From Caulobacteraceae bacterium (lineage in GTDB: Bacteria > Pseudomonadota > Alphaproteobacteria > Caulobacterales > Caulobacteraceae), in contig DASXGR010000047.1 in NCBI GenBank assembly GCA_036488935.1, forward strand, positions 150 to 64,149: DNA of 64,000 nucleotides, written 5' to 3'. The first letter of the stretch is position 1, and every line of letters starts with the position of its first letter. Shown piece after piece: positions 4,517-46,541 of the stretch. The notes below the pieces were generated by a model. That model saw only the letters and a program-made list of their open reading frames with translations. It searched no databases and was not told where the DNA came from. The position numbers were made by a program, and so were the translations under genes.

Positions 4517-4522
4517 ATCCGG

Positions 4523-5458: not shown

Positions 5459-5467
5459 CTCAATTCT

Positions 5468-7037: not shown

Positions 7038-7198
7038 TCTTCGTCCAAAACGAAGAAACTATTCGGAATATGTTGAATTAACAAAAGCCGCTGGATGGTG
7101 CAATGCAGCGTAGCGCTCAAAGGCTCTGCGCCCCCGTAATGGCGGGCGACGGCTCGGGGCTCCGCGCAAAGGCACGGCCCTTCTGAGCCGCAACACCA

Positions 7199-15421: not shown

Positions 15422-15547
15422 GCGCGCCTCGATGACCCCGGCGACCCCACTCGTTAGCTAGGGGCGCGTGCGGAGCGGCTCCAGCGCCTGCGACCGATGT
15501 ATTTTTTTGCGTCGGCGGGGAACCAAACCCGTCGAAGGAGTGCGGAT

Positions 15548-29664: not shown

Positions 29665-29713
29665 TCCGTTCCTCTCCTGCCTCCGCAGCAGACAAGGCCC
29701 ATAGATCGTATAG

Positions 29714-29736
29714 ATAATTGTTGGATGGCCAGCTAT
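29714..29736. promoter_or_regulatory. Candidate TetR operator upstream of tetR
   Basis: ATAATTGTTGGATGGCCAGCTAT; 20/23 match to the reverse complement of 30712-30734. Confidence 0.65.
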
Positions 29737-29861
29737 CTTGTCAATGTCCCTAGGACGACGCCCGTCACGGCGCGAGCCATGGCCGCTGCCGATCGACAGC
29801 GGCTTTTCGAAGGGTTCGTGGCTGATTTGAAGGGGGCGAGGGCAACAGGTAACGTTCCGTC

Positions 29862-30506: not shown

Positions 30507-30509
30507 AAG

Positions 30510-30684
30510 TGGGCCACGAACCTCACGAACTCCACGAACGGGTGTTCGCATAGGCGTCAGACGGCCGGACGTTCGATGGGCGCCTTGGCGCGCCTCCGAA
30601 GTTCAACTGGAAGCGGGCGCGCAGGACGGCGAACGTCTCTTCCCGTGGAGCCCTGTTCGTGGAGTTCGTGAGGTTCGTGGCCCA
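30510..30684. mobile_element. 175-bp non-coding element with perfect 30-bp terminal inverted repeats (MITE/REPIN-like)
   Basis: TGGGCCACGAACCTCACGAACTCCACGAAC (30510-30539) is the exact reverse complement of 30655-30684; arms are 3x CACGAAC; nested IR GACGTTCG/CGAACGTC. Confidence 0.8.
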
Positions 30685-30711
30685 TCTGCGCAACGCAGCC
30701 ACGATCATAAT

Positions 30712-30734
30712 ATTGCTGGCTATCCAACAATCAT
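30712..30734. promoter_or_regulatory. Candidate TetR operator upstream of the P450
   Basis: ATTGCTGGCTATCCAACAATCAT, pseudo-palindrome TTGYTGG-N4-CCARCAA. Confidence 0.65.
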
Positions 30735-30783
30735 GTATGAAGCCGATCCGATTTCGAGCCGCAAACGTGAATTTGGAACGCCG

Positions 30784-32058
30784 ATGCCAGCTGCGCCACA
30801 GGACATCCTCGCGACCGTCGTCGATCCGAAGGCGCACGCCGACCCGCCGCGAATCAACGCCGCTTACGCATGGCTGCGCCGGAACGATCCCCTCGCCCTG
30901 GCCGAACTGCCCGGCCTCGATCCGTTCCGGATCGTCACCAAGCACGCCGACATTCTCGAAATCAGCCGCGACAACCGCCTGTTCCCCTATGGCGACTTTC
31001 CCTCGACGCACGCGCCGCCCGAGCAGGTGGAGCGCGGGCGCGCGGCGCGGGCGGCGGGCCGGCCCCTGCTCTACACCCTGGTGCAGATGGATGAGCCGGA
31101 CCACATGAAGTACCGCGCCCTGACCCAGGCCTGGTTCATGCCGCAGAACATCCGCAAGCTCGAGGCTCACACCCGCGAGCTGGCGCGCGAAGCGGTCGCC
31201 CGGATGGAGGCCATGGGCGGGGAATGCGACTTCGTGAACGAGGTCGCCCTGCACTTCCCCCTGCGCGTGATCATGGGGATCCTCGGCGTGCCCCGCGAGG
31301 ACGAGCCGCGCATGCTCAAGCTGACCCAGGAGCTGTTCGGCGCCACCGATCCGGACCTGCGCCGCAATGAGGGTGGCGCGACGCCTGAGGCCCGGCAGGC
31401 GGACATTCAGGCCACGATGGCGGACTTCTTCAACTATTTCAATGCATTGACGGAAGACCGCCGTGCCAGGCCGAGGGACGACGTGGCCAGCACGATCGCC
31501 AACGCCACCATCGACGGCCAGCCGATCTCGGCCTTCGACGCCGTCTCCTACTACCTGATCATCGCCACCGCCGGGCACGACACGACCTCGTCCTCTACCG
31601 CCGGCGCGATGTGGGCCCTGGCCGAGCGACCGGCCGAGCTGGCTAAGGTTCGGTCCAACCCGGCTCTGATCTCCGGCCTGGTCGACGAGTCGATCCGCTG
31701 GACCACGCCGGTCCGGCACTTCATGCGCAGCGCCGCGCAAGACACCACCGTGCGCGGACAGGCCATCGCCAAGGGCGAGTGGCTGATGCTGTGCTACCCC
31801 TCCGGCAACCGCGACGAGGAGGTGTTCGAAGACCCGGACGAGTTCCGCGTCGATCGCAGTCCCAACCGCCATCTGGCGTTCGGCTATGGCGCCCACCTCT
31901 GCCTCGGCCAGCACCTGGCGAAGATGGAGATGCGCATCCTCTGGGAGGAACTGCTGCCCAGGCTGAGCTCAGTCGGCCTGGCCGGCGAGGCCAAGCTCTC
32001 CGAAGCCAGCTTCGTCAACGGCCCCAAGACCCTGCCGATCCGCTACGCCCTGGCCTGA
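30784..32058 (+). CDS. Cytochrome P450, CYP108 (P450terp)-like
   Basis: AYAWLR.NDPL, MDEPDHMKYR.LT..WF.P.NIRKLE, EPRMLKLTQE.FG, I-helix IATAGHDTTSSS, ESIRWTTPVRHFMR, heme motif HLAFGYGAHLCLGQHLAKMEM. Confidence 0.93.
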   Translation: MPAAPQDILATVVDPKAHADPPRINAAYAWLRRNDPLALAELPGLDPFRIVTKHADILEISRDNRLFPYGDFPSTHAPPEQVERGRAARAAGRPLLYTLVQMDEPDHMKYRALTQAWFMPQNIRKLEAHTRELAREAVARMEAMGGECDFVNEVALHFPLRVIMGILGVPREDEPRMLKLTQELFGATDPDLRRNEGGATPEARQADIQATMADFFNYFNALTEDRRARPRDDVASTIANATIDGQPISAFDAVSYYLIIATAGHDTTSSSTAGAMWALAERPAELAKVRSNPALISGLVDESIRWTTPVRHFMRSAAQDTTVRGQAIAKGEWLMLCYPSGNRDEEVFEDPDEFRVDRSPNRHLAFGYGAHLCLGQHLAKMEMRILWEELLPRLSSVGLAGEAKLSEASFVNGPKTLPIRYALA

Positions 32059-32118
32059 CCGGCCCCTTCACCCAAACGGCGTCATTGAGCGGCGGCGTCG
32101 CGCCTTCGGAGAGTGTTC

Positions 32119-32913
32119 ATGATCATCGATCTCACCGGCCGCAAAGCCGTCGTCAGCGGGTCCACCGGCGGCATCGGCCGCGCGATCGCGGAAGGGCTGG
32201 CCAAGGCCGGCGCCTCCGTCGTCATCAATGGCAGGGGCGAGGCGCGCGTGGCGACTGCGCTGCAGGAGATGCGGGCGGCGCTGCCAGAGGCAAAACTCGA
32301 CGGCGTCGCGGCGGACCTGGCGACTGCCGAGGGCGTCGCGGCCTTCATCGGGCACGCTGCGGACGCCGACATCCTCGTCAACAATCTGGGGACCGCCGTT
32401 CCCAAGCCCTTCGAGGCCTTGAAGGACGAGGATTGGCTGAGCCTCTTCCAGACCAATGTGATGAGCGGCGTGCGCATGACCCGCCACTATCTCCCGGCGA
32501 TGGTGAAGCGGGGCTGGGGTCGCGTGATCTTCATCTCCAGCGAGTCGGCCGTGAACATCCCCAAGGAGATGATCGACTACGGCATGACCAAGGTGGCGCA
32601 GCTGGCGATTTCGCGCGGCCTGGCCGAACAGGTCGCCGGGTCCGGCGTGACGGTCAATGCGGTCTTGCCGGGTCCGACGCGATCCGAAGGTCTTGGCCGC
32701 TACGTGAAGGCGGCGGCGGAGTCGCAAGGCGTGACCCAGGAGGTCATCGAGCAGCAGTTCCTGACCGCCTTCCGTCCGACATCCCTGATCAAGCGCTTCG
32801 CCACCACCGAGGAGGTCGCCAACATGGTCGTCTATGTCTGTTCGGAACAGGCCTCGGCGACCACCGGCGCCGCCCTGCGGGTCGACGGCGGCGTCGTCCG
32901 CTTCGTCGCGTAA
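32119..32913 (+). CDS. SDR family oxidoreductase
   Basis: SGSTGGIG, DILVNNLG, FISSES, YGMTK, NAVLPGPT. Confidence 0.93.
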   Translation: MIIDLTGRKAVVSGSTGGIGRAIAEGLAKAGASVVINGRGEARVATALQEMRAALPEAKLDGVAADLATAEGVAAFIGHAADADILVNNLGTAVPKPFEALKDEDWLSLFQTNVMSGVRMTRHYLPAMVKRGWGRVIFISSESAVNIPKEMIDYGMTKVAQLAISRGLAEQVAGSGVTVNAVLPGPTRSEGLGRYVKAAAESQGVTQEVIEQQFLTAFRPTSLIKRFATTEEVANMVVYVCSEQASATTGAALRVDGGVVRFVA

Positions 32914-33933: not shown

Positions 33934-34992
33934 CTATTTCGATCCAACAAAGTCCGCGGGCAGGTCCGCCCCCGTCGGTCGGCCGTCAACGATCTGGTCG
34001 AGATACTCCGACAGGCCGTAGCCGACCTTCCCGTCACAGCGGTATTCGGTCATCCCTTCGGTGATCCGCGTCGTCAGCTCCGCCCCGTCAGGCGTCTTGC
34101 GGCGGTTGCGCAGAGGGACCGGCGATAGCACCCGGCCCTCGACCTGGTACTCCGCCCCGGACTCCGTCCTGATCCGCGAGCGCAGCGCGGTCTGGTAGCC
34201 CTCGTTGTCCCAGTCGCTTTCGATGCTGGCTTCCTTGATCAGGTCGTAGACCCCGTCCTTCAGCACCATGCCGCCCTGGCGCACCTGGCCCTCCTCGTTG
34301 GCGACCAGCGAGATCATCATCGCAAAGTCGGACCCGAAGTTCATCGGGCACCAGCGGTACCAGTTGATCGCCTGCCAGTGGCGCGGGCCCCAGCTCTTGT
34401 CGCGCAGACCGTGACCGGAGACTTCGAAGCTCTCCTCGCCGACGGTGAAGCGGCCCTTCGCGGCCATGTGCTGCTCGTAGTGGGCGCGCGCGAACGACTT
34501 CTCCGGGTCGACCTCCAGGGAAGAGCCGTCTTCCTTCACCGTCTCCCCGCCGAACATCGGCGAGACTCCCTCGTAATCCAGCTCCACCGTGCAGGGCAGC
34601 TGCGGGTTCGTCTTGAAAGCCTTGGACGGCTCGGCCATCTCGCCTGGCCGCTCGAGCAGCAGCACCTTGCCCGAATAGGTGACGCGCAGTCGCTTGAGCG
34701 GCTCGACCACCTCGACCTTAAGCCCGCCGGCGTTCATCTCGGTGTTGCCGCTGATCCTGGGCCGGCCGAACATGAAACCGACCCGCCCGCCAGGCAGGTA
34801 CAGGCAGATCGAAATCTCCGCATAGCCTTCGTTTGGCCGGTTACCGATGCGGAACCAGCCGCCGACCTTTTGGGCCGGATCGAACATGTTGAAATACATG
34901 CTCTCGTTATAGTTGGTCGCTGCGTCGGGAACGTGGGGGAATTCGTCCTGGGGCTCCAGTCTAACCTTGAAGCCTTGTGGAGAACGGGCCAT
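33934..34992 (-). CDS. Hypothetical protein, CrtC/AttH-like fold suspected
   Basis: YNESMYFN, GGLKVEVVEPLKR, HYEQH..KGRFTVG, GLRDKSWGPRHW. Confidence 0.6.
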   Translation of the reverse strand: MARSPQGFKVRLEPQDEFPHVPDAATNYNESMYFNMFDPAQKVGGWFRIGNRPNEGYAEISICLYLPGGRVGFMFGRPRISGNTEMNAGGLKVEVVEPLKRLRVTYSGKVLLLERPGEMAEPSKAFKTNPQLPCTVELDYEGVSPMFGGETVKEDGSSLEVDPEKSFARAHYEQHMAAKGRFTVGEESFEVSGHGLRDKSWGPRHWQAINWYRWCPMNFGSDFAMMISLVANEEGQVRQGGMVLKDGVYDLIKEASIESDWDNEGYQTALRSRIRTESGAEYQVEGRVLSPVPLRNRRKTPDGAELTTRITEGMTEYRCDGKVGYGLSEYLDQIVDGRPTGADLPADFVGSK

Positions 34993-35100
34993 GGCGTCTC
35001 CTTCCGGCCGATCAACTCGGCGACGAACATTCTTCGCGATGCGCCCAACCTGGGCTCAATGTCGCGGCGTCAACGCAAGCGCAAAGTCGCGCCCATCCGA

Positions 35101-36027
35101 CTATGCCGCTGACGGCGCTGGCGCCGGCTGTTGGGAGCCGGGGCCGGCGAGCGAGGTGAATTGCGGCGCCATCTTCGGCAGGGCCTCGCTGAGGATCGAG
35201 GCCACGCTCCAGGTGTCGGCGGCGGTGACGCTCTCGATCGGGCGCGGTTGGCTGAACAGTTCGAGCGTCTCGGCGCGGGCGCCGAAGATCTGGCCGCTCA
35301 CGGCCTTGGCCGCAGGCGAGGCCAGCGCCACCGCCAGCTTGGCGGGCTGGTCGGGGCGCAGCGCGGCCTGCATCGCTTTCATCCGCGCCGCGCCGGCTTC
35401 GTCCTTGACTGGGATGGTGGCGATCAGGCGCGTCCAGGCGACGGGGGCGATGATGTTGGAGCGGACGTTCTTCGAGGCCCCCTCCATCGCCACCACGCGC
35501 GAGAGGCCCATGATGCCGAGCTTGGCGGCCGCGTAGTTGGCCTGGCCGATGTTGCCGATCAGGCCCGAGGTCGAGGTGAAGAGGACGTAGGAGCCCTCGT
35601 TCTGGTTGCGGAAGTGCTCCACCGTTGCGCGGCAGACGTTGTAGGAGCCGCGCAGGTGGACATCGACCACGACGTCCCAGTCCTCGTCCGGCATCTTGTG
35701 GAACATGCCGTCACGCAGGATTCCGGCCGGATTGATCACGGCATGCAGGCCGCCGAAGGTGTCCAGCGCCTGTTCGAGCATGCCCTTCACCGAGGCCATG
35801 TTGCTGACGCTCTCGGAGTTCGCGGCGGCCTCGCCGCCGGCGGCGCGGATCTCGCGCGCCACGGACTCGGCTGGACCTGCAGAACCCTCGTCGCCGCCGC
35901 GCTCGCCGCCGCCGAGGTCGTTCACCAGCACCTTGGCGCCTTCTCGCGCCGCAATCAGGGCACACTCCCGGCCGATGCCGTTGCCGCCCCCGGTGACGAG
36001 CACCACCTTGCCGTCCAATGCGCCCAT
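35101..36027 (-). CDS. SDR, hydroxyacyl-CoA dehydrogenase/MFE-2-like
   Basis: TGGGNGIG, GAKVLVNDLGG, AGILRDGMFHKM, GNIGQANYAAAKLG. Confidence 0.92.
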   Translation of the reverse strand: MGALDGKVVLVTGGGNGIGRECALIAAREGAKVLVNDLGGGERGGDEGSAGPAESVAREIRAAGGEAAANSESVSNMASVKGMLEQALDTFGGLHAVINPAGILRDGMFHKMPDEDWDVVVDVHLRGSYNVCRATVEHFRNQNEGSYVLFTSTSGLIGNIGQANYAAAKLGIMGLSRVVAMEGASKNVRSNIIAPVAWTRLIATIPVKDEAGAARMKAMQAALRPDQPAKLAVALASPAAKAVSGQIFGARAETLELFSQPRPIESVTAADTWSVASILSEALPKMAPQFTSLAGPGSQQPAPAPSAA

Positions 36028-36080
36028 TCTGAAAATCCTCCTCAGCTGCGTCCCGCTGTTTTCAGCGTCTCAGCCTCGTT

Positions 36081-36119
36081 GGGATAGCAGCAACTTACTG
36101 GTTGGCCAACAATCAAATC
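36081..36119. promoter_or_regulatory. 39-bp operator-like element, copy 2
   Basis: GGGATAGCAGCAACTTACTGGTTGGCCAACAATCAAATC, between the divergent SDR and AKR genes. Confidence 0.75.
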
Positions 36120-36161
36120 GACTTCTATAACCGGGCCCCTTCCGTCAGGAGTCGCCTCGCC

Positions 36162-37103
36162 ATGCAAACCGTTCGTCTCGGCCGCACCAACGCCGAGGTC
36201 AGCGTCGCCGGCCTCGGGTGCGGCGGACACAGCCGCCTGGGCATGGCCCGGGGTGCGGATGTGAGCCACGCCGCGGGGGTCGTCCGGCGCGCCCTCGACC
36301 TCGGCGTCAGCTTCATTGACACGGCCCGCGCGTACGGCACCGAGGAAGCGGTGGGCCAGGGGATCGCGGGACGGCGCGACCAGGTGTTCCTGTCGACCAA
36401 GGCCAGCCCCCGCCGCGGCGATGGGGCGCTGCTCACCGCCGCCGAACTGACCGAGAGCCTTGAAGGCTCCCTGCGCCGGCTGGGAACTGATCACGTGGAC
36501 GTCTTCCACCTGCACGGCGTGCAGGGCGCCCAGTACGAGCACTGCGCCAAGGTCCTGGTCCCCGAGATGAAGCGTCAGCAGGCGGCGGGAAAGATCAGGT
36601 ACCTTGGGATCACCGAGCAGTTCGGCGGCGACACGGGCCACGCCATGCTGCCCCGCGCCCTCGACGACGACCATTTCGATGTGATCATGGTGGGCTTCAA
36701 CCTGGTCAATCCCTCGGCCCGCAAACGGGTGTTTCCCCTGACCTTGGCGCGCGATGTGGGCACGCTGATCATGTTCGCCGTGCGCCGCCAGCTCAGCGAT
36801 CCGGAGGCCCTGCGCGATGCGGTGGCCGGCCTGATCGCGCGCGGCGAGGTGGACGGCGCCCAGATCAACGCCGCCGACCCGCTGGGCTTTCTGCGGGATA
36901 ATGTCGGGATCGGCTCGGCGGTCGAGGCCGCCTACCGGTTCTGCCGCCACGAGCCGGGCGCGCACGTGATCCTCACCGGCACCGGCGACGTCGCCCACCT
37001 GGAGGCCAACCTCGCCGCCATACAGGCTCCGCCGCTTCCTGCGGACGTGCTGGAGCGCCTGACGCACCTGTTCGGCAAGGTGGACAGCGTCTCGGGGAAC
37101 TAG
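36162..37103 (+). CDS. Aldo/keto reductase
   Basis: VS..GLGCGG, catalytic tetrad in IDTARAYG, LSTK, DVFHLH; GKIRYLGIT; ILTGT....HLEANL. Confidence 0.9.
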   Translation: MQTVRLGRTNAEVSVAGLGCGGHSRLGMARGADVSHAAGVVRRALDLGVSFIDTARAYGTEEAVGQGIAGRRDQVFLSTKASPRRGDGALLTAAELTESLEGSLRRLGTDHVDVFHLHGVQGAQYEHCAKVLVPEMKRQQAAGKIRYLGITEQFGGDTGHAMLPRALDDDHFDVIMVGFNLVNPSARKRVFPLTLARDVGTLIMFAVRRQLSDPEALRDAVAGLIARGEVDGAQINAADPLGFLRDNVGIGSAVEAAYRFCRHEPGAHVILTGTGDVAHLEANLAAIQAPPLPADVLERLTHLFGKVDSVSGN

Positions 37104-37193: not shown

Positions 37194-38456
37194 CTAACGC
37201 CTCGCTCGCCGGCGATCCAGCATGACCGACAGGCCGAGGATCGGAATGGCGGCCAGGCCGAGCGCCGCGCCGATCCAGCCGGTGGACGTCCACCCGAAAC
37301 CTGCGGCGATGGAGAGGCCGCCCAACCACGCGCCCAGGGCGTTGGCGAGATTGAACGCCGAGTGGTTGAGTGCGGCGGCGAGCGTCTGCGCGTCGCCCGC
37401 GGTGTCCATCAGCCGGGTCTGGAGCGCCGGCACGATGGCGACGATACCGCCCATGAGGAAGAGGTCGACCACGGCGGTCCAGGTCTGGGCGGCGGCCACG
37501 CCGAACACCGCCAGCACCACAACGCTCCACACCAGACCACCGAGGATCGAGGCCATCAGCGCGCGATCGGCAAGCCACCCCCCAACGAGGCTGCCCGCGA
37601 CCATCCCCAGACCGATCACTGACAGGAACAGGGGTACGCTCGCGAGCGGCGCGCCGGTCACCCGCGTGAGGGCGGGAGTGATGTAACTGTAGACGGCGAA
37701 GAGACCGCCGAAGCCGACAGCCGCCACGCCCAGGGTCAGCCAGACTTGCGCCCGCTTGAGGCCGGCAAGCTCGCGTGTAGGCGAGGCGCCGCTGTGCACG
37801 GGGATGACTGGGACGAACAGGCTCACGAGGGCGGCCGTGAGCAGGCCCAGCCCGCAGACCGCCATGAACGCCGCCCGCCAGCCGAGCCACTGACCCAGCC
37901 AGGTTGCAAAGGGCACACCCACGACATTGGCCACGCTCAGCCCCAGCATTACTCTGCCCACCGCCTTGGCGCGGCCCTCCGGTCCTGCAAGGCCGGCGGC
38001 CACCAGGGCGGCAATGCCGAAATAGGCTCCGTGGGGCAGGCCGGCGAGGAAGCGGGCGGCCACAAGTGGGACGAACGAGGGAGCCGCCGCCGTGGCGGCG
38101 TTACCCAGGGCGAAAAGGATCATCAGCCCGATCAGCATGGCCCGGCGCGGGGCCCTCGCCATCAGAACGGTGATGATCGGAGCCCCGACCACCACGCCCA
38201 GCGCGTACGCACTGATCATGTGACCCGCGGTGGGGATGGACACCCCCACGCTCCGCGCTGCGCCAGGCAGGAGGCCCATCGCGGCGAACTCGCCGGTGCC
38301 GAGGGCGAAGCCGCCCATCGCCAGGGCGAGCTCCGCCATAGCCGCGCCGTGGGGGGTCCGAACCGGAGGCTCCTCTGCATCGCGCGAAAGCGGCGGCAGA
38401 GGTTCGGTCCCCCAACCGGCCTGGTCGTGGGCGCGTTCGTCGAGTTGAAGCTGCAT
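37194..38456 (-). CDS. MFS transporter (DHA1/AraJ-YdhP-like)
   Basis: GGFALGTGEFAAMGLLP, ISAYALGVVVGAP, RFLAGLPHGAYFG, ALNHSAFN.ANALGAWLGG; true start may be downstream. Confidence 0.92.
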   Translation of the reverse strand: MQLQLDERAHDQAGWGTEPLPPLSRDAEEPPVRTPHGAAMAELALAMGGFALGTGEFAAMGLLPGAARSVGVSIPTAGHMISAYALGVVVGAPIITVLMARAPRRAMLIGLMILFALGNAATAAAPSFVPLVAARFLAGLPHGAYFGIAALVAAGLAGPEGRAKAVGRVMLGLSVANVVGVPFATWLGQWLGWRAAFMAVCGLGLLTAALVSLFVPVIPVHSGASPTRELAGLKRAQVWLTLGVAAVGFGGLFAVYSYITPALTRVTGAPLASVPLFLSVIGLGMVAGSLVGGWLADRALMASILGGLVWSVVVLAVFGVAAAQTWTAVVDLFLMGGIVAIVPALQTRLMDTAGDAQTLAAALNHSAFNLANALGAWLGGLSIAAGFGWTSTGWIGAALGLAAIPILGLSVMLDRRRARR

Positions 38457-38588
38457 GATAGTGGGCGGTCAGTCCTGCTGGAGCGTCTTTCAACGAAGCG
38501 GGAACTGGTCGCCGCAAGAAAGCGCGTTAAATCAAAGAATTAGAGCGCAGCTCCGACGCAATCGGAACTGCGCTCCAGCGAGCGCCAA

Positions 38589-40010
38589 TCAGGCGGCGCG
38601 CGCTTGCGGTCCGATGATCCCCGAGGCCGTCATGAGCCGGCGGCCCATCTCCGCGGCCCGGCGTGCGCCCACCGGCTCGGACGCCACCGAAGCATGGGCG
38701 AACTTCCGCAGCCTGCCGGCCACCATCACCGTGTGCACGTTGGCGACGCTGCTGTGGAAGACCACGGCCTGGACCGGGTTCGCGAGCGGCGAGGAGAACT
38801 CGTGGTCCCAGGAAAGCATCGTCAGGTCGGCGTCCTTTCCCGGCCGGATCGAACCGATGCGGTGATCGAGGCGCAGGGCGCGCGCGCCCTCCAGGGTGGC
38901 GCTGAGTAGGATGTCGCGCGCGCCGATGGCCACGCGCTCGGGCATGGCCCCTCCGGCGTGGGCGTCGGCGTTGGCGAGCATGCGCTGGGCCTGAACCGCG
39001 AAGCGCATCTGGGAGAACATGTCGGCGCTGACGCTGGAGACAACATCGGTGCCCAGGGTGATGCGCCCGCCGGCGGCCTGGACCCGTCCGGTCACCGGCA
39101 AGCCGTGGCCCATCTGCATCTCCACTTCCGGCGTCACCGAGATGCTGGCGCCGAGCTCGACAGCCATGGCGATCTCGTCGTCGCCCAGACGATTGCAGTG
39201 GGTGAGGTTGATGTCCGGCCCAAGCAATCCGGCCTCGGCCAGCCGGCGGCCGTGGGGGACGTAGTCCCCGTACACGCCCACGGCCAGATGCATGCTCGCG
39301 ATGATCCCCAGGGATCGGGCCAGCTCGATGTCCGCCTGGTTCACCTCGTCCACGGCGAAGTCCGGACCGCGCATGGAAAGGCCCAGGGTCACCAGGGCGT
39401 CGTCCGAGGCCAGACGCGTCCTGCGCAGGCGCACGATGTCCTGCGGGTGGGTCTCGCGGCTCTGATAGTACCACCGGGAGACATCGTCCCCGGGCGTTCC
39501 GTGGCCGAATACCGCGCGGATCCCCGAGGCCTGCAGGGCGTCGATCGCAGCGTCCGCATGCTCGGGCGTGTTGAGGATGTGAGCCCAGTCGTAGACGGTG
39601 GTCACGCCGGCCTCGATCTGCTCGATCGCGCCCAGGAGGGTCGCGACGTGCACGTCCTCGGGCCGGTAGTGCTTGCCGGCCTCGCCCAGGATGAACTGGA
39701 GATAGTCGCCGAAGGCGTAGTCGCCGCCGCAGCCCTTGATGGTCGTCTGCCACAGATGGATGTGGCTGTTCACGAACCCGGGGATCACCACCTTGTCCAC
39801 GCCATCGATGACCGCCGCGCCTTCGCAGGCGAGATTCGGTCCGACCTCGGCGATCTTCCCATCCTTGACGAGGATGTCGCCGACGAGATCTCCGATCTGT
39901 TCCTCGAGGGTGATCACGTGCGCCCCCCGGATCAGGATCGGCCGGGATGGATCGAGGAGTTCCTCGCGCTGAGCCTCGGCTCGCGGATCGGCAGGCCTGG
40001 ACACGGTCAT
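38589..40010 (-). CDS. Amidohydrolase superfamily protein (Atz/Trz/SAH-deaminase-like)
   Basis: PGFVNSHIHLWQT, GVTTVYDW, SMHL, THCN, LGTD, GSIRPGKDADL; GAGGAG RBS before 40010. Confidence 0.9.
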   Translation of the reverse strand: MTVSRPADPRAEAQREELLDPSRPILIRGAHVITLEEQIGDLVGDILVKDGKIAEVGPNLACEGAAVIDGVDKVVIPGFVNSHIHLWQTTIKGCGGDYAFGDYLQFILGEAGKHYRPEDVHVATLLGAIEQIEAGVTTVYDWAHILNTPEHADAAIDALQASGIRAVFGHGTPGDDVSRWYYQSRETHPQDIVRLRRTRLASDDALVTLGLSMRGPDFAVDEVNQADIELARSLGIIASMHLAVGVYGDYVPHGRRLAEAGLLGPDINLTHCNRLGDDEIAMAVELGASISVTPEVEMQMGHGLPVTGRVQAAGGRITLGTDVVSSVSADMFSQMRFAVQAQRMLANADAHAGGAMPERVAIGARDILLSATLEGARALRLDHRIGSIRPGKDADLTMLSWDHEFSSPLANPVQAVVFHSSVANVHTVMVAGRLRKFAHASVASEPVGARRAAEMGRRLMTASGIIGPQARAA

Positions 40011-40022
40011 TCTACGCACTCC

Positions 40023-41381
40023 TCAACTCAAATCGGCCGGTTGCAGGCCGACCTCTCGGCAGATCCTTCGGCCGGACTCACCCAGTTCCGCGGCCAGGTC
40101 GGCCAGGTCCGGGCAGAGCAGACGCCCGTGACGCTTGCGCCAGACGCCCGCGATCATGACCGAATCGATGTTGCCGGGGTTTGCCTGCATCACGACGCTC
40201 GAGACGGGATCGTGGATCGGGTGCAGGTTCAGGGCGTCGCTGCGGACAAGGACGAGATCGGCCTGCTTGCCCGGCGCGATCGAGCCGATGCGATCCTCCT
40301 GACCCAGCATGCGCGCGCCCTCGCGCGTCACCCAGCGCAGGGCGTCACGGGTGCGCAGCCGGGCCTTGCCACCGAACGCGCCCCGCTCGCGCGCCGCGAT
40401 GTTGTCCAGGCAGCGCTGATGGGTCAGGGCCATGCGCGCCACGGTAAGCATGTCAGCCGAATGGGCGCTCTCGATGTCCGCCCCGAGGGACGGGCTCGCC
40501 CCCAGGTCATGCAGGCGTCCCACGATTGGGTGGCCGTGACCCGAGATCAGCTCCGACTCGGGCGTGACGGTGAAGCGGACGTCCAGGGCGACGAACCGCT
40601 CGAGCTGGGCGTCGCTGAGATCATTGCCGTGCACGATGTTGACGTGCGGCCCGATCAGGCCCTCGGCTTCCAGCCGGTTCCAGCCATCTGGGTCGCGGGG
40701 CGGCCCACCGCCCTGATGCATGGAGGCGATCAGGCCGAACTCCTTGGCGAGGGCGAAGTCCTGCAGCGAGACCGCAAGTGTGGCGTAGTGGGGACCGAGG
40801 ATCGCCATCCCCAGCGAGATCATGCCACCGTCCGCCTCCAGCTCCCGGCGCAGGCGCTCGATCTCATCGCGCGGATGGGGAACCTCCCAATAGGGCGGCT
40901 CACCCGGCCGCGGGTCGGGCTTGGGCGTTCCGTGCATGAAGCACGCCCGGATCCCCGAGGCGCGGAGACCGGCGATCGCCGCGTCTGTATGTGCGGGCGT
41001 GGGATTGTTGTGGCACCAGTCGACCAGAGTGGTGGCGCCGGAATTTATCTGGTTCAGGGCCCCAAAAAGGGTGGCGATCTGGATGTCCCGCGGCCGGAAG
41101 TGGGTCGCGAGCCCGGCATGCATCCAACGGGCGTATTCGGGAAAGGTCCAGTTCGAGGAGATCGAGCGCAGGGCGGTTTGCCAGGTGTGCATGTGGGCGT
41201 TCACCAGGCCGGGAAGGACGATGAGATCGCCCCCCTCGACCACTTCGGCGTCCTGCGAGGGCAGATCACGGCCGACCGCAGCAATCACATCGTTCCGTAC
41301 AAGGACGTCACCATGCACGAGGTCGTCCTCACCCCCCTCCATCGTGATGATGGTCGCCCCGCGTATCAGGACAGAGGTCAT
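40023..41381 (-). CDS. Amidohydrolase superfamily protein, paralog 2
   Basis: PGLVNAHMHTWQT, GATTLVDW, SMHQ, VHGN, LGAD, GSIAPGKQADL; AGGAG RBS before 41381. Confidence 0.9.
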   Translation of the reverse strand: MTSVLIRGATIITMEGGEDDLVHGDVLVRNDVIAAVGRDLPSQDAEVVEGGDLIVLPGLVNAHMHTWQTALRSISSNWTFPEYARWMHAGLATHFRPRDIQIATLFGALNQINSGATTLVDWCHNNPTPAHTDAAIAGLRASGIRACFMHGTPKPDPRPGEPPYWEVPHPRDEIERLRRELEADGGMISLGMAILGPHYATLAVSLQDFALAKEFGLIASMHQGGGPPRDPDGWNRLEAEGLIGPHVNIVHGNDLSDAQLERFVALDVRFTVTPESELISGHGHPIVGRLHDLGASPSLGADIESAHSADMLTVARMALTHQRCLDNIAARERGAFGGKARLRTRDALRWVTREGARMLGQEDRIGSIAPGKQADLVLVRSDALNLHPIHDPVSSVVMQANPGNIDSVMIAGVWRKRHGRLLCPDLADLAAELGESGRRICREVGLQPADLS

Positions 41382-41470
41382 CGTCGGACTCCTGGGACTC
41401 GAGGCGGACATGCCTCGCGCGGCCGCCGGCGCCTCCCAACGCCCGGCGGCCTCTTCTGCAAACAGCTCGT

Positions 41471-42526
41471 CTATGGTCTTGCCCTTGGCTGTCGCGGCTG
41501 AGCGGTGGATGCGCGGGCCACGAGGTCGGGCTTGAGGACCAGGTCGACGCCGCCCTCGGCGGCGCCTTGGACTTTCTTCAGCAGGATCTCCGCGGACCGT
41601 TCGCCCATTTCGCGATGGCGGATGCGCACGGTGGTGAGCGGCGGGGAGATCAGGTCGACGAAGGGCATGTCGTTGTGCCCCACGACCGAGATGTCGCCGG
41701 GGCAGGCGAGACCCCGGTCGGCCAGGGCGTCGTAGAGGCCGATCGCCAGAAGGTCGTTGGCCGCCACCACGGCGGTGAGGTCGGGCCTCCGGTCCAAAAG
41801 CCGCGAAGCGGCCTCCCGGCCGGCCTCGCGGGAGAAGGCCGTGGCAAGGATCACATTGGCGCCCGGCGCGGGCAGGTGATGCGCCTGCATCGCGGCGCCG
41901 AAACCTTCCAGGCGTCCCTTTCCCGTGGAGAGGTTCAGCGGACCGGCGATGTGCCCGATATGGCGGTGGCCGAGTTCGACCAGATGGTCGACCGCCAGCT
42001 TCATGCCCCGCGCGTCGTCGCTGACCACCGAGGAGACCCGATGGTCGCCGGCCGCCTCGCTGCGGTTGATCACCACGACGGGCGCGCCCGCCTTGAGGCA
42101 GAAGTCGACGAGCGAGTCGCGGCGCGTGACCGTCGCCAGGATCAGGCCGTCGACCTGACGGGCGAGCAGGCGCTCGACGACCAGCCGCTGATGCGCCTCC
42201 TCGGAGCCGGCGTTGGCGACGATCGCCACATAGCGCTCGGCGGACAGCACCGCCTCGATGCCCTCGAGTATGGGTGGGAAGACCGGGTTCGTGATGTCGG
42301 GCAGGACGACGCCGACGGTCATCGAATTGCGCGTGCGCAGGCTGGCGGCCAGGTCGTTGCGCACGTAGCCGAGCTCTTCGGCTGCAGCCAGGATCCGCGC
42401 CGTGACGTCCTCGGACAGGCGATGGCGCGTCGCCGGGTTGAGCGCGCGCGACACGGTGGAGGGGTGCACTCCCACCTTCCGGGCAATGTCCTGCGCCGTA
42501 TAGCGTCCCGCGCCAGTGACGTGCAT
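41471..42526 (-). CDS. LacI-family transcriptional regulator
   Basis: TAQDIARKVGVHPSTVSRALN, LGY.RN..AASLR, NPVFP, HRHIGHIAG, GDISVVGHND. Confidence 0.95.
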   Translation of the reverse strand: MHVTGAGRYTAQDIARKVGVHPSTVSRALNPATRHRLSEDVTARILAAAEELGYVRNDLAASLRTRNSMTVGVVLPDITNPVFPPILEGIEAVLSAERYVAIVANAGSEEAHQRLVVERLLARQVDGLILATVTRRDSLVDFCLKAGAPVVVINRSEAAGDHRVSSVVSDDARGMKLAVDHLVELGHRHIGHIAGPLNLSTGKGRLEGFGAAMQAHHLPAPGANVILATAFSREAGREAASRLLDRRPDLTAVVAANDLLAIGLYDALADRGLACPGDISVVGHNDMPFVDLISPPLTTVRIRHREMGERSAEILLKKVQGAAEGGVDLVLKPDLVARASTAQPRQPRARP

Positions 42527-42535
42527 TCGATTGCG
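42522..42535. promoter_or_regulatory. LacI-type operator 1 (overlaps the lacI start codon)
   Basis: TGCATTCGATTGCG, two mismatches from the palindrome TGCAATCGATTGCA; fits the LacI consensus TGnAAnCGnTTnCA. Confidence 0.7.
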
Positions 42536-42644
42536 CATGAGTTGCTTATTCGACTCGGGCGTCCAGCTTGTCAACGTCCATCACGATAACCTGTGCTACC
42601 CTCTGGCTCCCTTGACTCTCGCAGCCGGGACATGAAATGGGTTG

Positions 42645-42658
42645 TGCAATCGAATGCA
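42645..42658. promoter_or_regulatory. LacI-type operator 2 (upstream of the dioxygenase)
   Basis: TGCAATCGAATGCA, one mismatch from the palindrome. Confidence 0.75.
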
Positions 42659-42669
42659 TGGAGAGCCCC

Positions 42670-43560
42670 ATGATCATCGAGCAGGAGCACGAGATCACGC
42701 CCGCCGTGGAGCAGGCGATGTCGCGCACGCCTGACCTCCGCCTGCGCGAGGTGATGGCCGCTTTCGTGCGCCACGCCCACGCCTTCGTGCGAGAGGTGCA
42801 TCCCACCGAGGAGGAGTTCGAGGCCGGGATGAGGTTCCTGGCCGCCCTCGGCCACCACACCAACGACGTGAACAACGAAGTGGTGCTGGCCGCCGACGTG
42901 CTGGGCGTCTCGTCGCTGGTCGGCCTGCTCAACAACGAGCGGGGCTGCGGTCAGACTGCCGCGGCGCTGCTGGGGCCCTTCTGGCGCGACAACGCCCCGC
43001 ACTACGAACTGGGCGCCAACATCGTCCAGTCGGACACTCCCGGCATTCCACTGTTTGTGTCAGGCGTCGTGCGCGACACGAGTGGCGCTCCGATCACGGG
43101 CGCATCCGTGGACGTCTGGCACGCCTCGCCAGTCGGCCTGTACGAAAACCAGGATCCCGAGCAGGCGGAGATGAACCTCCGGGGGCTGTTCAAGACCGAC
43201 GCGCAGGGCCGCTTCCATTTCCGCTCTGTGCGGCCGGCGGGCTATCCGGTGCCGACCGACGGCCCGATCGGCGATCTGCTGCGCGCCCAGCTGCGCCACC
43301 CCTTCCGGCCCGCGCACATCCACTTCATGGTCACCAAGCCGGGCTTCAAGACGCTCGTCACCCAGATCTTCTCGGACGACGCCGAACATCTGGAGACGGA
43401 CGTCACCTTCAGCGTCATCCGCTCGATCGTGGGCCGTTACGTGCGCCACGAGAGCGGACCGGCTCCGGCGCCCGACGTCACGTCGCCCTACTACACCCTC
43501 GAATACGACTTCGTGCTCGAGGCGGGCGAGATGCGCATCCCCGTTCCCCCGATCCGCTGA
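42670..43560 (+). CDS. Intradiol ring-cleavage dioxygenase (hydroxyquinol/catechol 1,2-dioxygenase family)
   Basis: N-terminal dimerisation helices (RLREVM..FVRH.H.FVRE, D.LGVSSLV), LLGPFW, Fe ligands Tyr (GLYENQD), Tyr (GYPVPTDGP), RPAHIH. Confidence 0.93.
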   Translation: MIIEQEHEITPAVEQAMSRTPDLRLREVMAAFVRHAHAFVREVHPTEEEFEAGMRFLAALGHHTNDVNNEVVLAADVLGVSSLVGLLNNERGCGQTAAALLGPFWRDNAPHYELGANIVQSDTPGIPLFVSGVVRDTSGAPITGASVDVWHASPVGLYENQDPEQAEMNLRGLFKTDAQGRFHFRSVRPAGYPVPTDGPIGDLLRAQLRHPFRPAHIHFMVTKPGFKTLVTQIFSDDAEHLETDVTFSVIRSIVGRYVRHESGPAPAPDVTSPYYTLEYDFVLEAGEMRIPVPPIR

Positions 43561-43568
43561 GCCCGCCA

Positions 43569-44324
43569 ATGACAACCGCTTCCCTACCCCTCGCCGGCAA
43601 GGTGGCCGTCGTGCTTGGCGGGTCGGGCGCCATCGGTTCCGCCGCCGGCGCCCTCTTGGCCGAAGCCGGCGCGCGAGTCGCAGTGGTCGCCGCCCGGGAC
43701 GCCGCAAGGGCAGCGCAGGTCGCCGGCGCGCTGATGGGCGGGCCTCATGGAGCCTATGCCGCAGCGATCCAGGACACCCAGGCTCTAGGAGACCTCGCCA
43801 AGGCCATCCGCACCGAGATGGGTCGCGCGGACATCCTGGTGAACTCCGCCGGCATGACGCGCCCGGTCCCCCACGCGGACCTGGACGCCCTGACCGACGA
43901 GATCTTCGACGAGGTGATGGCCGTGAACTGCCGCGGCGCCTTCGCGGCGGTCCGCGCTTTCGCCCCGCTCCTGCGCGAGAGCGGCGACGGCCTGGTCGTC
44001 AACATCTCCTCGATCGCGGCGACTACCGCCGTGGGTTCAAGCATCGCCTACTGCGCCGCCAAGGCGGGCATGGACGTGATGGGCGCGGCCCTGGCTCGCG
44101 CCCTCGCGCCAGCCATCCGCGTGCTGACCATCTCGCCGGGCGTGGTGGACTCCGACTTCGTGCCGGGCCGCGACCGTGCATGGAGCGACAAGGCCGCCGC
44201 CTCCACGCCGCTGAAGCGACTGGCCAGCGCCGAGGACGTCGGCAGGGCGGTCCTGGCCTGCGCCGTCAATCTTCCGTTCTCGACCGGATCGGTGATCCAG
44301 GTCGATGGCGGCCGCCACCTCTGA
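43569..44324 (+). CDS. SDR family oxidoreductase
   Basis: LGGSGAIG, DILVNSAG, VNISSIAA, YCAAK, ISPG.VD, VDGG. Confidence 0.93.
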   Translation: MTTASLPLAGKVAVVLGGSGAIGSAAGALLAEAGARVAVVAARDAARAAQVAGALMGGPHGAYAAAIQDTQALGDLAKAIRTEMGRADILVNSAGMTRPVPHADLDALTDEIFDEVMAVNCRGAFAAVRAFAPLLRESGDGLVVNISSIAATTAVGSSIAYCAAKAGMDVMGAALARALAPAIRVLTISPGVVDSDFVPGRDRAWSDKAAASTPLKRLASAEDVGRAVLACAVNLPFSTGSVIQVDGGRHL

Positions 44325-44337
44325 GCGAGACCGAGGC

Positions 44338-45222
44338 ATGCTGGAAAAGCCGATCATCACCTGCGCCATCACCGGCAACCTCACCACGGTCGAGCAGAAT
44401 CCGCACTTGCCGGTAACGCCCGAGCAGATCGCGGAGGCGGTGCTGGAGGCCGCCGAGGAAGGCGCCGCGATCTCTCACATCCATGTGCGTGACCCGGCCA
44501 CCGGCCGCCCCTCGATGGAGCTGGACTACTACCGCGAGGTCATGGACCTGGTGCGCCGCCGCAACCGCGACGTGGTGATCAACCTGACCACGGGACCGGG
44601 CGGGCGGTTCGTCCCTGGCGAGGAGGATCCCAGCGCCGCCGGCCCCGGCACCACGCTTTGCCGGCCCGAAAAGCGGGTCGAGCACATCGCCATCCTCAAG
44701 CCGGACATCGCCACGCTGGATCTCAACACGATGAACTCCGGCGAACAGGTCGTGATCAACACGCCGCGCAACGTCGCGCGCATGGCCCGCGTCATCCGCG
44801 CCGCGGGCGTGACGCCGGAGATCGAGCTCTTCGACTCCGGCGACGTCCACCTCGCCCGCGCCCTGATCGCCGCCGGCGAACTCGAGGGGCCGGGACTGTT
44901 CTCGATCGTCATGGGGGTGCGCTACGGCTTCGACGCCTCGCCCGAGACCCTGATGTACGCGCGCAACCTGCTGCCGGCCGGCGCCCTATGGACGGGCTTT
45001 GGCATCGGCCGCTCGGCCCTGCCCATGGTCGCCCAGTCCTGGCTGCTTGGCGGCAATGTGCGGGTCGGCATGGAAGACACGGTCTACATCGCCAAGGGCG
45101 AGCTGGTGCGGTCGAACGGCCAGCTCGTCCGACGGGCTCGCGAGATCCTCCAATCCCTTGGTGTTTCCCCCGCCACGCCCGCCGAGGCGCGCCGCGCGCT
45201 CGGCCTCGCCCCGGTCGCTTAG
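44338..45222 (+). CDS. Beta-keto acid cleavage enzyme (BKACE/DUF849, Kce family)
   Basis: IITCAITG, PVTPEQIA, GAAISHIHVRD, PDIATL, PEIELFD.G, GGNVRVGMED, SN.QLV. Confidence 0.93.
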   Translation: MLEKPIITCAITGNLTTVEQNPHLPVTPEQIAEAVLEAAEEGAAISHIHVRDPATGRPSMELDYYREVMDLVRRRNRDVVINLTTGPGGRFVPGEEDPSAAGPGTTLCRPEKRVEHIAILKPDIATLDLNTMNSGEQVVINTPRNVARMARVIRAAGVTPEIELFDSGDVHLARALIAAGELEGPGLFSIVMGVRYGFDASPETLMYARNLLPAGALWTGFGIGRSALPMVAQSWLLGGNVRVGMEDTVYIAKGELVRSNGQLVRRAREILQSLGVSPATPAEARRALGLAPVA

Positions 45223-45231
45223 GAGGTCTGC

Positions 45232-46209
45232 GTGCAACGACTGAGAGTCTATGAGAAAGCCGCCGACATCGGCGCTCTGAAACTCGCCCTCGAGTCATGG
45301 GACCCGCCGGCCGCCGGGCCGGGCGAGGCCGTGGTCGAAATCCGCGCTTCCGGGGTCAATCCCTCGGACGTCAAGGCCACGCTGGGCGCGATGCCTCACG
45401 CCGTGTGGCCGCGCACGCCCGGCCGCGACTGGGCCGGCGTCGTCATCGATGGACCCGCTGAGCTGAAAGGGCGCGCAGTATGGGGCTCGAGCGGTGAGCT
45501 CGGGATCCGCAGGGACGGCGGCCACGCGAGCCATCTTGTCCTGGATGTCGCACAAGTCCGGCTCAAGCCGGAGACCGTCAGTCTGAGCGAGGCGGGCGCT
45601 GTCGGGGTGCCATTCGTCACGGCCTATGAAGGCCTGCGCCGCGCCGGACTTCCCGGCGCCGGAGACGTGGTGCTCGTGCTGGGCGCCAACGGCAAGGTGG
45701 GCCAGGCGACGATCCAGATCGCGACCATGCTGGGCGCGACGGTGTTCGGCGTGGAACGGTGGGCCGAAGCCTATGGCGGCCACGCCTCGGCGCCGGTGCG
45801 GATGATCGCGGCCGACGCGGAGGACCTCGCGCAGGTCGTGCGCGACGAGACGGACGGCCATGGCGCCGACATCGTCTTCAATACGGTCGGGAGCCCCTAT
45901 TTTCAGAAGGCGAACGCGGCCATGGCGCTGCGCGGCCGGCAGATCTTCATCTCCACGATCGAGCGGCCCGTCCCGTTCGACATCCTGGAGTTCTATCGCG
46001 GGCAGCGGACCTACGTCGGCATCGACACCCTGGGCATGGACGGGCGCGACAGCGCGCAGATCCTGGACGCCCTGGCGCCGGGTTTCGAGAGCAGGTCACT
46101 TCGCCCCTTCCCGGTGCTCGACGCCGCTGTCTATCCTCTCGAGCGGGCGAAGGACGCCTACGCCGCAGTCCTTTCCGGCGCCCGCGACCGCATCGTGCTC
46201 GCCCCATGA
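45232..46209 (+). CDS. MDR superfamily QOR/zeta-crystallin-type NAD(P)H oxidoreductase
   Basis: ASGVNPSD (no catalytic Zn Cys), PGRDWAGVV, VLVLGANGKVG, GADIVFNTVG; GTG start with AGGAGG RBS. Confidence 0.87.
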   Translation: MQRLRVYEKAADIGALKLALESWDPPAAGPGEAVVEIRASGVNPSDVKATLGAMPHAVWPRTPGRDWAGVVIDGPAELKGRAVWGSSGELGIRRDGGHASHLVLDVAQVRLKPETVSLSEAGAVGVPFVTAYEGLRRAGLPGAGDVVLVLGANGKVGQATIQIATMLGATVFGVERWAEAYGGHASAPVRMIAADAEDLAQVVRDETDGHGADIVFNTVGSPYFQKANAAMALRGRQIFISTIERPVPFDILEFYRGQRTYVGIDTLGMDGRDSAQILDALAPGFESRSLRPFPVLDAAVYPLERAKDAYAAVLSGARDRIVLAP

Positions 46210-46541
46210 AGGTCACCCGTCTGGCCGACGCCCCAGCCTATTTCCCCGCGAACCACTTCGACATGAGGTGCCTGAGGCTGCAGGGTCACGAGGCCGGGCC
46301 GAGCGACACCCTGTGGCTGGGACTTTCCCAGCTTCTGCCGGGCGGCCGAACGACGCTGGACGCCGCGGCGGTCGAGAAGCTCTACGTCGTGCTGGAAGGC
46401 TCTGTGACCGTGTCGAACGGAGAGGAAGAAGTCACCCTGGAGCCCTGGGACTCCTGCCGTATTGCGCCCGGCGAGGGCCGGCAGCTGGAGAACCGGACCA
46501 ACCGGCCGGCAAGCATCCTGCTGGCGATGCCCCTGACCTGA
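46206..46541 (+). CDS. Small cupin-fold protein
   Basis: PGG....EKLYVVLEG.V.V..G.EEVTL.PWDSCRIAPGE.R.LEN; ATGA overlap with the upstream gene. Confidence 0.85.
   Translation: MKVTRLADAPAYFPANHFDMRCLRLQGHEAGPSDTLWLGLSQLLPGGRTTLDAAAVEKLYVVLEGSVTVSNGEEEVTLEPWDSCRIAPGEGRQLENRTNRPASILLAMPLT

Follow-up and report, generated by a model that had tools for sequence, protein, structure and literature searches.

A LacI-linked dioxygenase-BKACE gene cassette of soil Proteobacteria as a candidate variant of the hydroxyquinol pathway

How is the product of a hydroxyquinol-type ring-cleavage enzyme degraded when none of the usual downstream genes accompanies the dioxygenase gene? This question is raised by a stretch of 64,000 nucleotides (hereafter the window; GC content about 67%, soil metagenome origin) from the 147-kb contig DASXGR010000047.1 of the Caulobacteraceae bacterium assembly GCA_036488935.1. 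Five plus-strand genes of the window encode an intradiol dioxygenase, a short-chain dehydrogenase/reductase (SDR), a DUF849 protein of the BKACE family, a zinc-free medium-chain dehydrogenase/reductase (MDR) of the quinone oxidoreductase (QOR) type and a cupin, and divergent from them lie genes for a LacI-family repressor, two amidohydrolases and a major facilitator superfamily (MFS) transporter. Our results indicate that this cassette is real, widespread and apparently an undescribed variant of the hydroxyquinol/beta-ketoadipate pathway. As to its chemistry, we tentatively favour, with confidence somewhat short of even, a LacI-repressed system of soil Alpha- and Betaproteobacteria that would degrade a hydroxyquinol-type (1,2,4-trihydroxybenzene-like) ring by way of maleylacetate, 3-oxoadipate and the BKACE. 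The nine genes named by the first-pass annotation of this sequence were all confirmed by Pfam and NCBIfam profile matches, and the gene calls of the source pipeline agree. The cassette genes are:

42670..43560, plus strand: hydroxyquinol-type intradiol dioxygenase (PF04444, 5e-23; PF00775, 1.3e-41)
43569..44324, plus strand: classical SDR (Ser-Tyr-Lys catalytic residues, GGSGAIG nucleotide-binding motif)
44338..45222, plus strand (open reading frame opens at 44305): DUF849/BKACE protein of the BsfD/3C6C clade (PF05853, 3e-96)
45232..46209, plus strand: zinc-free MDR/QOR, of quinone oxidoreductase or enoyl-reductase type (PF08240, PF00107, PF13602)
46206..46541, plus strand: single-domain cupin of 111 residues (PF07883)

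The intergenic gaps (8, 13 and 9 nt) and the overlap of QOR and cupin genes by 4 nt bear out the earlier description of a tightly coupled operon. The canonical downstream genes, which the same annotation had reported missing, are indeed not in the window: tblastn gave no match anywhere in it to the maleylacetate reductase of the iron-containing alcohol dehydrogenase (Fe-ADH) type, and a domain scan of 30 further window open reading frames revealed no CoA-transferase, thiolase or muconate cycloisomerase.

Evidence that these genes belong together comes from their conservation. A scan with the BKACE as query, one genome per species, gave 47 loci, in which nine window proteins were then searched for by tblastn. 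The order dioxygenase-SDR-BKACE-QOR-cupin is kept in about 25-30 loci of Alpha- and Betaproteobacteria, on chromosomes and on plasmids. By tblastn, the ordered cassette is found in Caulobacteraceae, Noviherbaspirillum, Roseibium, Skermanella, Comamonas, Acidovorax, Hydrogenophaga, Variovorax, Azohydromonas and Burkholderiaceae; it is also present in Rhizorhabdus wittichii RW1 and DC-6, in Pararobbsia and on a metagenomic contig of 444 kb (L060), and plasmid-borne copies occur in Skermanella, Bosea, Shinella and Ensifer. Because gene order is conserved across two classes of Proteobacteria, the view that the five genes form one functional unit is supported, and the grouping made by the first-pass annotation stands. 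Within the unit, SDR and BKACE form the most tightly conserved module, which is also found without the dioxygenase: SDRs of orthologue-level identity (44-53%) adjoin BKACE homologues whose neighbourhood lacks dioxygenase, QOR and cupin. Since it is the SDR, and not the cupin, that accompanies such BKACE homologues, the cassette looks like two modules, one of dioxygenase, QOR and cupin, the other of SDR and BKACE. No maleylacetate reductase gene lies beside the cassette at any locus (tblastn, Agrobacterium enzyme as query); the lone match, 28% identical, is distant from the cassette (L014).

The surroundings of the cassette vary. Most loci have a LacI regulator and the remainder a LysR, and the nearby uptake genes encode MFS, TctC, TRAP or Liv-type ATP-binding cassette systems or a TonB receptor. 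At least five loci have a gene for a hexapeptide (gamma-carbonic-anhydrase-like) protein near the cassette. In the Burkholderiaceae loci, the QOR gene is apart from the BKACE gene or not detected; there, the hexapeptide gene is directly 3' of the BKACE gene, and the cupin gene is absent in Pararobbsia (L058) and distant in Caballeronia (L056). The Shinella cassette has both the hexapeptide and the cupin genes. In RW1, genes for Amidohydro_2, RidA, SnoaL_4, one Amidohydro_1 and LysR proteins precede the cassette (L049/L050 for DC-6 and RW1, about 3200-7800), which is followed by a TonB receptor gene and two genes for Tricorn-like amidohydrolases of about 1000 residues; SnoaL_4 (with a signal peptide) and Amidohydro_1 recur in Comamonadaceae loci. 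The RW1 cassette corresponds to about Swit_1778-1782, a numbering deduced from Swit_1789 being NsrR, and a literature search by locus tag found no published data on these genes. An Agrobacterium plasmid carries a 66%-identical BKACE that adjoins a dioxygenase and a canonical maleylacetate reductase, with no QOR and no cupin. We considered this locus as a missing link and count it as weak support, the SDR there being only 29% identical to the cassette SDR.

The regulatory region strengthens the case for a dedicated system. It comprises:

41471..42538, minus strand: LacI-family repressor, first gene of the minus-strand unit (PF00356, PF13377, PF00532)
42522..42537, minus strand: operator O1, TGCGCAATCGAATGCA, beginning at base 2 of the lacI ATG
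42643..42658, plus strand: operator O2, TGTGCAATCGAATGCA, 11 nt 5' of the dioxygenase ATG and directly ahead of the GGAGAG ribosome-binding site

The repressor consists of an N-terminal LacI helix-turn-helix and a periplasmic-binding-protein-like effector domain (Pfam), and its orthologues, 40-79% identical, adjoin the cassette in more than a dozen loci examined. The two operators are exact 16-mers, TG(C/T)GCAATCGAATGCA, and the sole matches in 64 kb when 3 mismatches are permitted; they lie 121 bp apart within the single lacI/dioxygenase divergent promoter. Their count alone is weak evidence, since 20 of 100 shuffled sequences gave at least two matches at 3 mismatches. The pairing of exact copies in one divergent promoter and the palindromes of orthologous loci weigh more. 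Of the orthologous LacI-linked loci examined, most have palindromes related to O2, with a central CG, 5' of the dioxygenase gene (TGCAATCGATTGCA in two copies in Skermanella; GGCAATCGATTGCC in Comamonas and Azohydromonas; TGCAAACGTTTGCA in Noviherbaspirillum and on the S. mucosa plasmid), and no such palindrome was seen at this place in the LysR-linked loci examined. We therefore regard the operator assignment, made by footprinting across loci, as solid, and the two LacI-type operators that the first-pass annotation placed between the divergent units are upheld. The comparison also supports a dedicated LacI and operator that co-evolve with the cassette. As O1 overlaps the lacI start, the repressor probably controls its own gene. 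LacI bound at O1 and O2 would silence both divergent units until an effector arrives. Literature searches on LacI regulators with hydroxyquinol, and on inosose or tetrahydroxybenzene with the cassette pathway, returned nothing relevant.

Which ring does the cassette open? The best solved relatives of the dioxygenase are PnpC (1.6e-63) and the Nocardioides hydroxyquinol 1,2-dioxygenase 1TMX (2.5e-57), both about 45-50% identical to it, and catechol enzymes follow at 1e-33 or weaker. The Fe(III) ligands (Y164, Y197, H221 and H223 of 1TMX) are shared by the window protein and all its cassette orthologues, and D83, L80 and R218 of 1TMX are invariant in an alignment of the cassette dioxygenases. 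By its sequence, then, the protein belongs to the hydroxyquinol clade of iron-dependent intradiol enzymes, with hydroxyquinol or a close derivative as the inferred substrate. The cassette enzymes nevertheless form a clade of their own, set apart from the characterised ones by the signature Q76N/H, T106A, V107L, F108L/V/I, F112W/Y and I199V. In the first step of the proposed pathway, the dioxygenase would turn a hydroxyquinol-type ring into maleylacetate or a close analogue.

The canonical hydroxyquinol pathway of the pnp, tft and dxn clusters starts with a dioxygenase of the same family and clade, whose iron ligands and key pocket residues are kept in the window enzyme. It then proceeds through an Fe-ADH maleylacetate reductase, a 3-oxoadipate CoA-transferase and a thiolase, whereas the cassette offers MDR, SDR, DUF849 and cupin proteins; most cassette loci also have a LacI-type in place of a LysR-type regulator. 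In the second step, the zinc-free MDR would reduce the C=C bond of maleylacetate to give 3-oxoadipate, replacing the Fe-ADH-type reductase. The protein lacks the Cys/His zinc ligands (GVNPSD and PGRDWAG stand at those positions), and its solved relatives are QORs and enoyl-reductase domains of polyketide synthases. Its top NCBIfam match is the PIG3 quinone-oxidoreductase family, and enoyl-thioester reductases are also among its relatives (the polyketide synthase domains, acrylyl-CoA reductase, YhdH). An enzyme of this type could reduce a C=C bond.

The third step would fall to the DUF849 enzyme, acting with acetyl-CoA on an anionic beta-keto acid. The canonical BKACE reaction, in which 3-oxoadipate and acetyl-CoA give succinyl-CoA and acetoacetate, has been published as the closing step of an aromatic pathway (Bastard 2014, as cited in PMC8963497; NetSyn supplement), and the same products would arise here. 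Zinc ligands and catalytic Glu (equivalents of H48, H50, E247 and E164; Kce E143) are kept, as are the CoA contacts, and the enzyme is probably zinc-dependent and probably uses acetyl-CoA. The first-pass annotation had pointed to the active-site residues as the means of classifying this protein. They classify it in part: the residues just named are those of a BKACE, but the active-site Tyr that has been linked to the CoA-thiolate step (Kce Y145, PdKce Y173) is replaced by Phe (EIELFDSG), as in BsfD and 3C6C. In Kce, Tyr stands at position 166 and Phe at 251, and in the window clade mostly Phe at 166 and Tyr at 251, possibly a positional swap. The hexapeptide gene of at least five cassette loci and the CoA-transferase and 3-hydroxyacyl-CoA-dehydrogenase genes near related BKACEs fit CoA-thioester products. 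Literature searches found no link between DUF849/BKACE proteins and hydroxyquinol or maleylacetate.

The best solved relative of the window BKACE is BsfD (PDB 9ZSC; 4.7e-107), with which it aligns gap-free over 287 residues at about 58% identity. BsfD, an enzyme of Burkholderia flavophos biosynthesis, acetylates 3-oxo-4-phosphonobutanoate from acetyl-CoA without a retro-Claisen step, and the adduct loses CO2 to give a 1,3-diketone; this divergence was ascribed to Phe166 in place of the usual Tyr, to a 20-residue insertion after beta-3 that bears Arg91, and to the lack of capping helices (bioRxiv 10.64898/2026.01.15.699783). Arg91, called a 'unique basic residue', touches the substrate phosphonate, and the F166Y mutant was insoluble, so that a causal role of Phe166 could not be shown (same source). 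The contact of Arg91 with the phosphonate suggests an anionic substrate for the window enzyme as well, and across the clade this residue would grip the distal carboxylate of the beta-keto acid. Arg91 and Phe166 are invariant in all examined clade members at least 51% identical, within the cassette and outside it, which by alignment makes them traits of the clade and not BsfD specialities. Other members adjoin an enolase-superfamily enzyme and an orthologous SDR, or a 3-hydroxyacyl-CoA-dehydrogenase-like gene, or a lactonase with a DHDPS-family enzyme and a family III CoA-transferase; judged by gene content, these are catabolic, acid-handling contexts. Because the two residues are invariant in catabolic contexts without phosphonate genes, BsfD looks recruited from a common catabolic subfamily. 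No phosphonate-pathway domain (PepM etc.) was found among the window open reading frames scanned. While BsfD and the window BKACE share zinc ligands, CoA contacts, Phe166 and Arg91, the BsfD cluster serves phosphonate biosynthesis and the context of the cassette is catabolic, with uptake systems, a ring-cleavage dioxygenase and a repressor.

Two further proteins of the cassette would assist these steps. The SDR, which always accompanies the BKACE, probably supplies or conditions the beta-keto-acid substrate of the BKACE, or clears a product. An adjacent dehydrogenase and BKACE are known as a functional pair in deoxyribonate and carnitine catabolism, with products entering acetoacetate metabolism (Price et al. 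2019, PMC6365646); the BKACEs concerned are of ASMC groups G1 and G5 and receive their beta-keto acid from dehydrogenases that act on a sugar acid or carnitine, whereas the cassette pair is joined to a ring-cleavage module. The cupin, metal-free and rich in Arg, probably isomerises or tautomerises a dicarboxylate fission product. It is strongly conserved (65-92% identity among 120 matches), and R5, R24, K58, R85, R92, E57, E90, Y12, Y60 and H17 are invariant in the alignment. Canonical metal ligands are missing: there is no HxH, Arg occupies the lone semi-conserved His position and motif 2 has Arg for His. The loss of the metal-binding His, together with invariant Arg and Lys accompanied by Glu, Tyr and His, suggests an enzyme that works without metal on an anionic substrate. 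Its structural model (predicted local distance difference test score, pLDDT, 94.8) is nearest to TM1459, a protein of unknown function, and the fold search returned generic small cupins only (TM1459, RemF, DddK). The NCBIfam label 'beta-D-galactosidase' (Rv1717, NF050094) was discarded as uninformative, its score of 97 bits being under the cut-off of 175. Homology does link the cupin family to M. tuberculosis Rv1717, a reported beta-galactosidase, and the M. tuberculosis DUF849 protein P71976 is in ASMC group G3. P71976 is presumably Rv1718, adjoining Rv1717, which would hint at another role for Rv1717.

What feeds the pathway may be sought in the divergent genes:

40023..41381, minus strand: amidohydrolase AH2, a paralogue of AH1 (41% identical; NF006056, 534 bits against a cut-off of 391)
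38589..40010, minus strand: amidohydrolase AH1, TRZ/ATZ-like, PRK08204 subfamily (NF006056, 502 bits against a cut-off of 391)
38541..38577, minus strand: strong terminator-like hairpin between the AH1 and MFS genes, 17 pairs with a T-rich tail
37194..38456, minus strand (start at 38339 in the source pipeline): MFS transporter, DHA1, AraJ/Cmx-like (PF07690, E 8.7e-39)

Genes and positions of the divergent unit proposed earlier all hold, but the MFS gene may be a transcription unit of its own, since the hairpin parts it from AH1. An MFS gene also adjoins AH1 in L002 (88% identity) and is not present in all loci. Both amidohydrolases have the metal ligands HxH, H, H and D and lack the HxxE glutamate of deaminases (MHLAVG in AH1, MHQGGG in AH2), as do all orthologues. 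Orthologues of AH1 (66-77% identical) and AH2 (65-70%) occur in tandem with the cassette in the betaproteobacterium Pararobbsia and in L060, where they lie 3' of the cupin gene within the cassette operon. Bosea, RW1 and six Comamonadaceae loci have a single copy with the cassette, and about half of the loci have none; a homologue 64% identical in Acidobacteria lies in an unrelated glycosyltransferase cluster. This patchy presence suggests an old, optional addition whose simplest reading is an upper module, and the pair would feed a nitrogen-containing precursor into the pathway. Its conservation points to a nitrogen-containing natural substrate.

A possible second link to an upper pathway is a three-subunit molybdenum hydroxylase of the xanthine-dehydrogenase family (window 11680-15457, minus strand). 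A homologue adjoins the cassette in L060 (11104-14966; FeS subunit 62%, FAD subunit 54% and molybdenum-cofactor subunit 41% identical), and such genes also neighbour the Shinella cassette and a Neorhizobium SDR-BKACE pair, recurring in L054, L057 and L060. We left this enzyme out of the system, since 22 kb separate it from the cassette in the window. Directly beyond the MFS gene (33934-37103) are genes for a DUF7064/DUF7065 protein, a 308-residue SDR and an aldo-keto reductase, the last of which also neighbours the cassette in L060. Elsewhere in the window are a separate small cluster, further upstream, of AMP-binding ligase, cytochrome P450 and SDR genes (27698-32913), a pyrroloquinoline quinone-dependent dehydrogenase gene (PF01011, E 3e-226) adjoining copC- and copD-like genes (1818-5458), and a gene for a 1177-residue sensor kinase with multiple GAF domains and HisKA_3 (18100-21633, minus strand).

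Several observations weigh against the route through 3-oxoadipate and must be set beside those that favour it. The first-pass annotation had proposed that the ring-fission product is reduced to 3-oxoadipate and cleaved by the BKACE. This proposal is partly supported: the missing canonical genes, the clade of the dioxygenase and the QOR type fit it, but the BKACE is closest to BsfD and is not the NF053568 enzyme: it reaches 170.1 bits against the 350-bit cut-off of that 3-oxoadipate equivalog, 251 against 382 for the Kce equivalog, and misses the cut-off for the triacetate enzyme too. All three BsfD features are present in the window protein, and BsfD, its closest characterised relative, halts after acetyl transfer and then decarboxylates; the proposed cleavage would therefore conflict with the only biochemistry of a close relative. 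If reduction of maleylacetate yields 3-oxoadipate directly, the SDR would be without a task despite the tight SDR-BKACE pairing, and the scheme would likewise leave the cupin and the amidohydrolase pair without a role. Since the cassette dioxygenases share pocket changes of their own, the true substrate may be a substituted hydroxyquinol. The TRAP and TctC transporters found with the cassette usually serve carboxylates. Finally, R. wittichii RW1 is known to have the canonical dxn hydroxyquinol pathway too, which argues against simple redundancy.

The claim of an undescribed system is also too strong, as a BKACE-ended beta-ketoadipate pathway has already been published for ASMC group G4. In that protocatechuate pathway (pca clusters of Methylobacterium and Rhodobacterales; NF053568), the logic is the same, a DUF849 enzyme and acetyl-CoA standing in for PcaIJ and PcaF. 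The window BKACE differs from this group in belonging to another subfamily, in the 20-residue insertion and in Phe for Tyr, and the cassette branch is of hydroxyquinol type with SDR, MDR and cupin as partners. Homologues of the window BKACE at E <= 1e-60 number 7,663. In the group table of Bastard 2014 (725 proteins), two RW1 entries stand in the heterogeneous ASMC group G3 with entries from JMP134, Comamonas, Variovorax and M. tuberculosis, and some assays of this group with beta-ketoadipate and 3,5-dioxohexanoate were positive. The RW1 and Comamonas cassette homologues appear to fall in G3, a tentative placement that takes A5V776, from accession order, for the RW1 cassette BKACE. Group G6 (non-BKACE, beta-ketoglutarate decarboxylation) had been suspected, since beta-ketoglutarate is isosteric with the BsfD substrate; this was dropped, as the G6 list has no R. 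wittichii and the RW1, JMP134, Comamonas and Variovorax entries are in G3.

If the kinship to BsfD is taken at its word, the DUF849 enzyme would C-acetylate the fission beta-keto acid with no retro-Claisen step, and decarboxylation would give a beta-diketone (for example 4,6-dioxoheptanoate from 3-oxoadipate) to be processed by SDR, cupin or MDR. The gapless identity, the Phe for the catalytic Tyr, the Arg91 insertion and the lack of capping helices all speak for it, and the SDR, as a ketoreductase, and the cupin would gain tasks. We nevertheless consider this route unlikely. Its structural argument is blunted by the insoluble F166Y mutant, and Phe166 and Arg91 extend over the clade, sugar-acid-like catabolic contexts included. 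Moreover, spending acetyl-CoA on a diketone is a poor catabolic bargain, and the cupin has no metal site of the kind on which a Dke1-type diketone dioxygenase depends. Succinylacetone inhibits porphobilinogen synthase, which also counts against a diketone route. That the whole Arg91/Phe166 clade works in this way, by C-acetylation and decarboxylation to a beta-diketone dismantled by SDR, MDR and cupin, seems improbable to us as well.

Alternatively, the ring substrate may be more oxidised: a hydroxy- or dihydroxy-benzoquinone or a tetrahydroxybenzene, possibly derived from an aminoquinone through AH1 and AH2, with the QOR as a true quinone reductase. The dioxygenase would then yield a diketo- or hydroxy-keto-adipate, the SDR would adjust one carbonyl, and the BKACE would release acetoacetate and a hydroxyacyl-CoA. 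Such a route gives every core enzyme a role, the SDR between dioxygenase and BKACE included, and agrees with the PIG3 match of the QOR; hydroxyquinones are anionic and would suit TRAP and TctC uptake, and the gene contexts of related BKACEs are sugar-acid-like, with hydroxylated acyl-CoAs as products. The distinct pocket signature of the cassette dioxygenases would also be explained, but its changes are hydrophobic, not polar, and the amidohydrolases are absent from about half of the loci. The scheme is pure inference, literature searches turned up no such pathway, and we hold it to be quite unlikely.

A third possibility keeps the end products of the 3-oxoadipate route and reverses the order of the enzymes. 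Maleylacetate is itself a beta-keto acid, and the BKACE could convert it to acetoacetate and maleyl-CoA, which the MDR, as an enoyl-CoA reductase, would reduce to succinyl-CoA. The enoyl-thioester reductases among the QOR relatives and the position of the BKACE gene ahead of the QOR gene are compatible with this order. This support is not direct, the SDR and cupin would still be roleless, and the Burkholderiaceae QOR is apart from the BKACE or not detected; we give the reversed order a slim chance. That the genes are neighbours by chance and serve no common pathway is effectively refuted by the same five genes in the same order in about 25-30 loci of two classes, on chromosomes and plasmids, and by the co-evolving LacI and operator.

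We therefore retain, as the leading and simplest proposal, hydroxyquinol-type cleavage followed by reduction to 3-oxoadipate and BKACE cleavage. Hydroxyquinol is a hub for resorcinol, nitrophenols, chlorophenols and lignin- and tannin-derived phenolics, and its assumed route is through maleylacetate reductase and then PcaIJF. A second hydroxyquinol route with non-homologous enzymes appears present in many soil Proteobacteria, including the model degraders R. wittichii RW1 and Comamonas testosteroni. If this is true, pathway prediction from genomes would change, and a large DUF849 clade would be assigned a function. Should the BsfD-like chemistry hold instead, the cassette would be an aromatic lower pathway unlike any known, and the 'new chemistry' of BsfD would have been borrowed from a common catabolic family. 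The chemistry of the cassette would tell whether the BsfD reaction is the oddity of a single biosynthetic cluster or the norm of a catabolic family.

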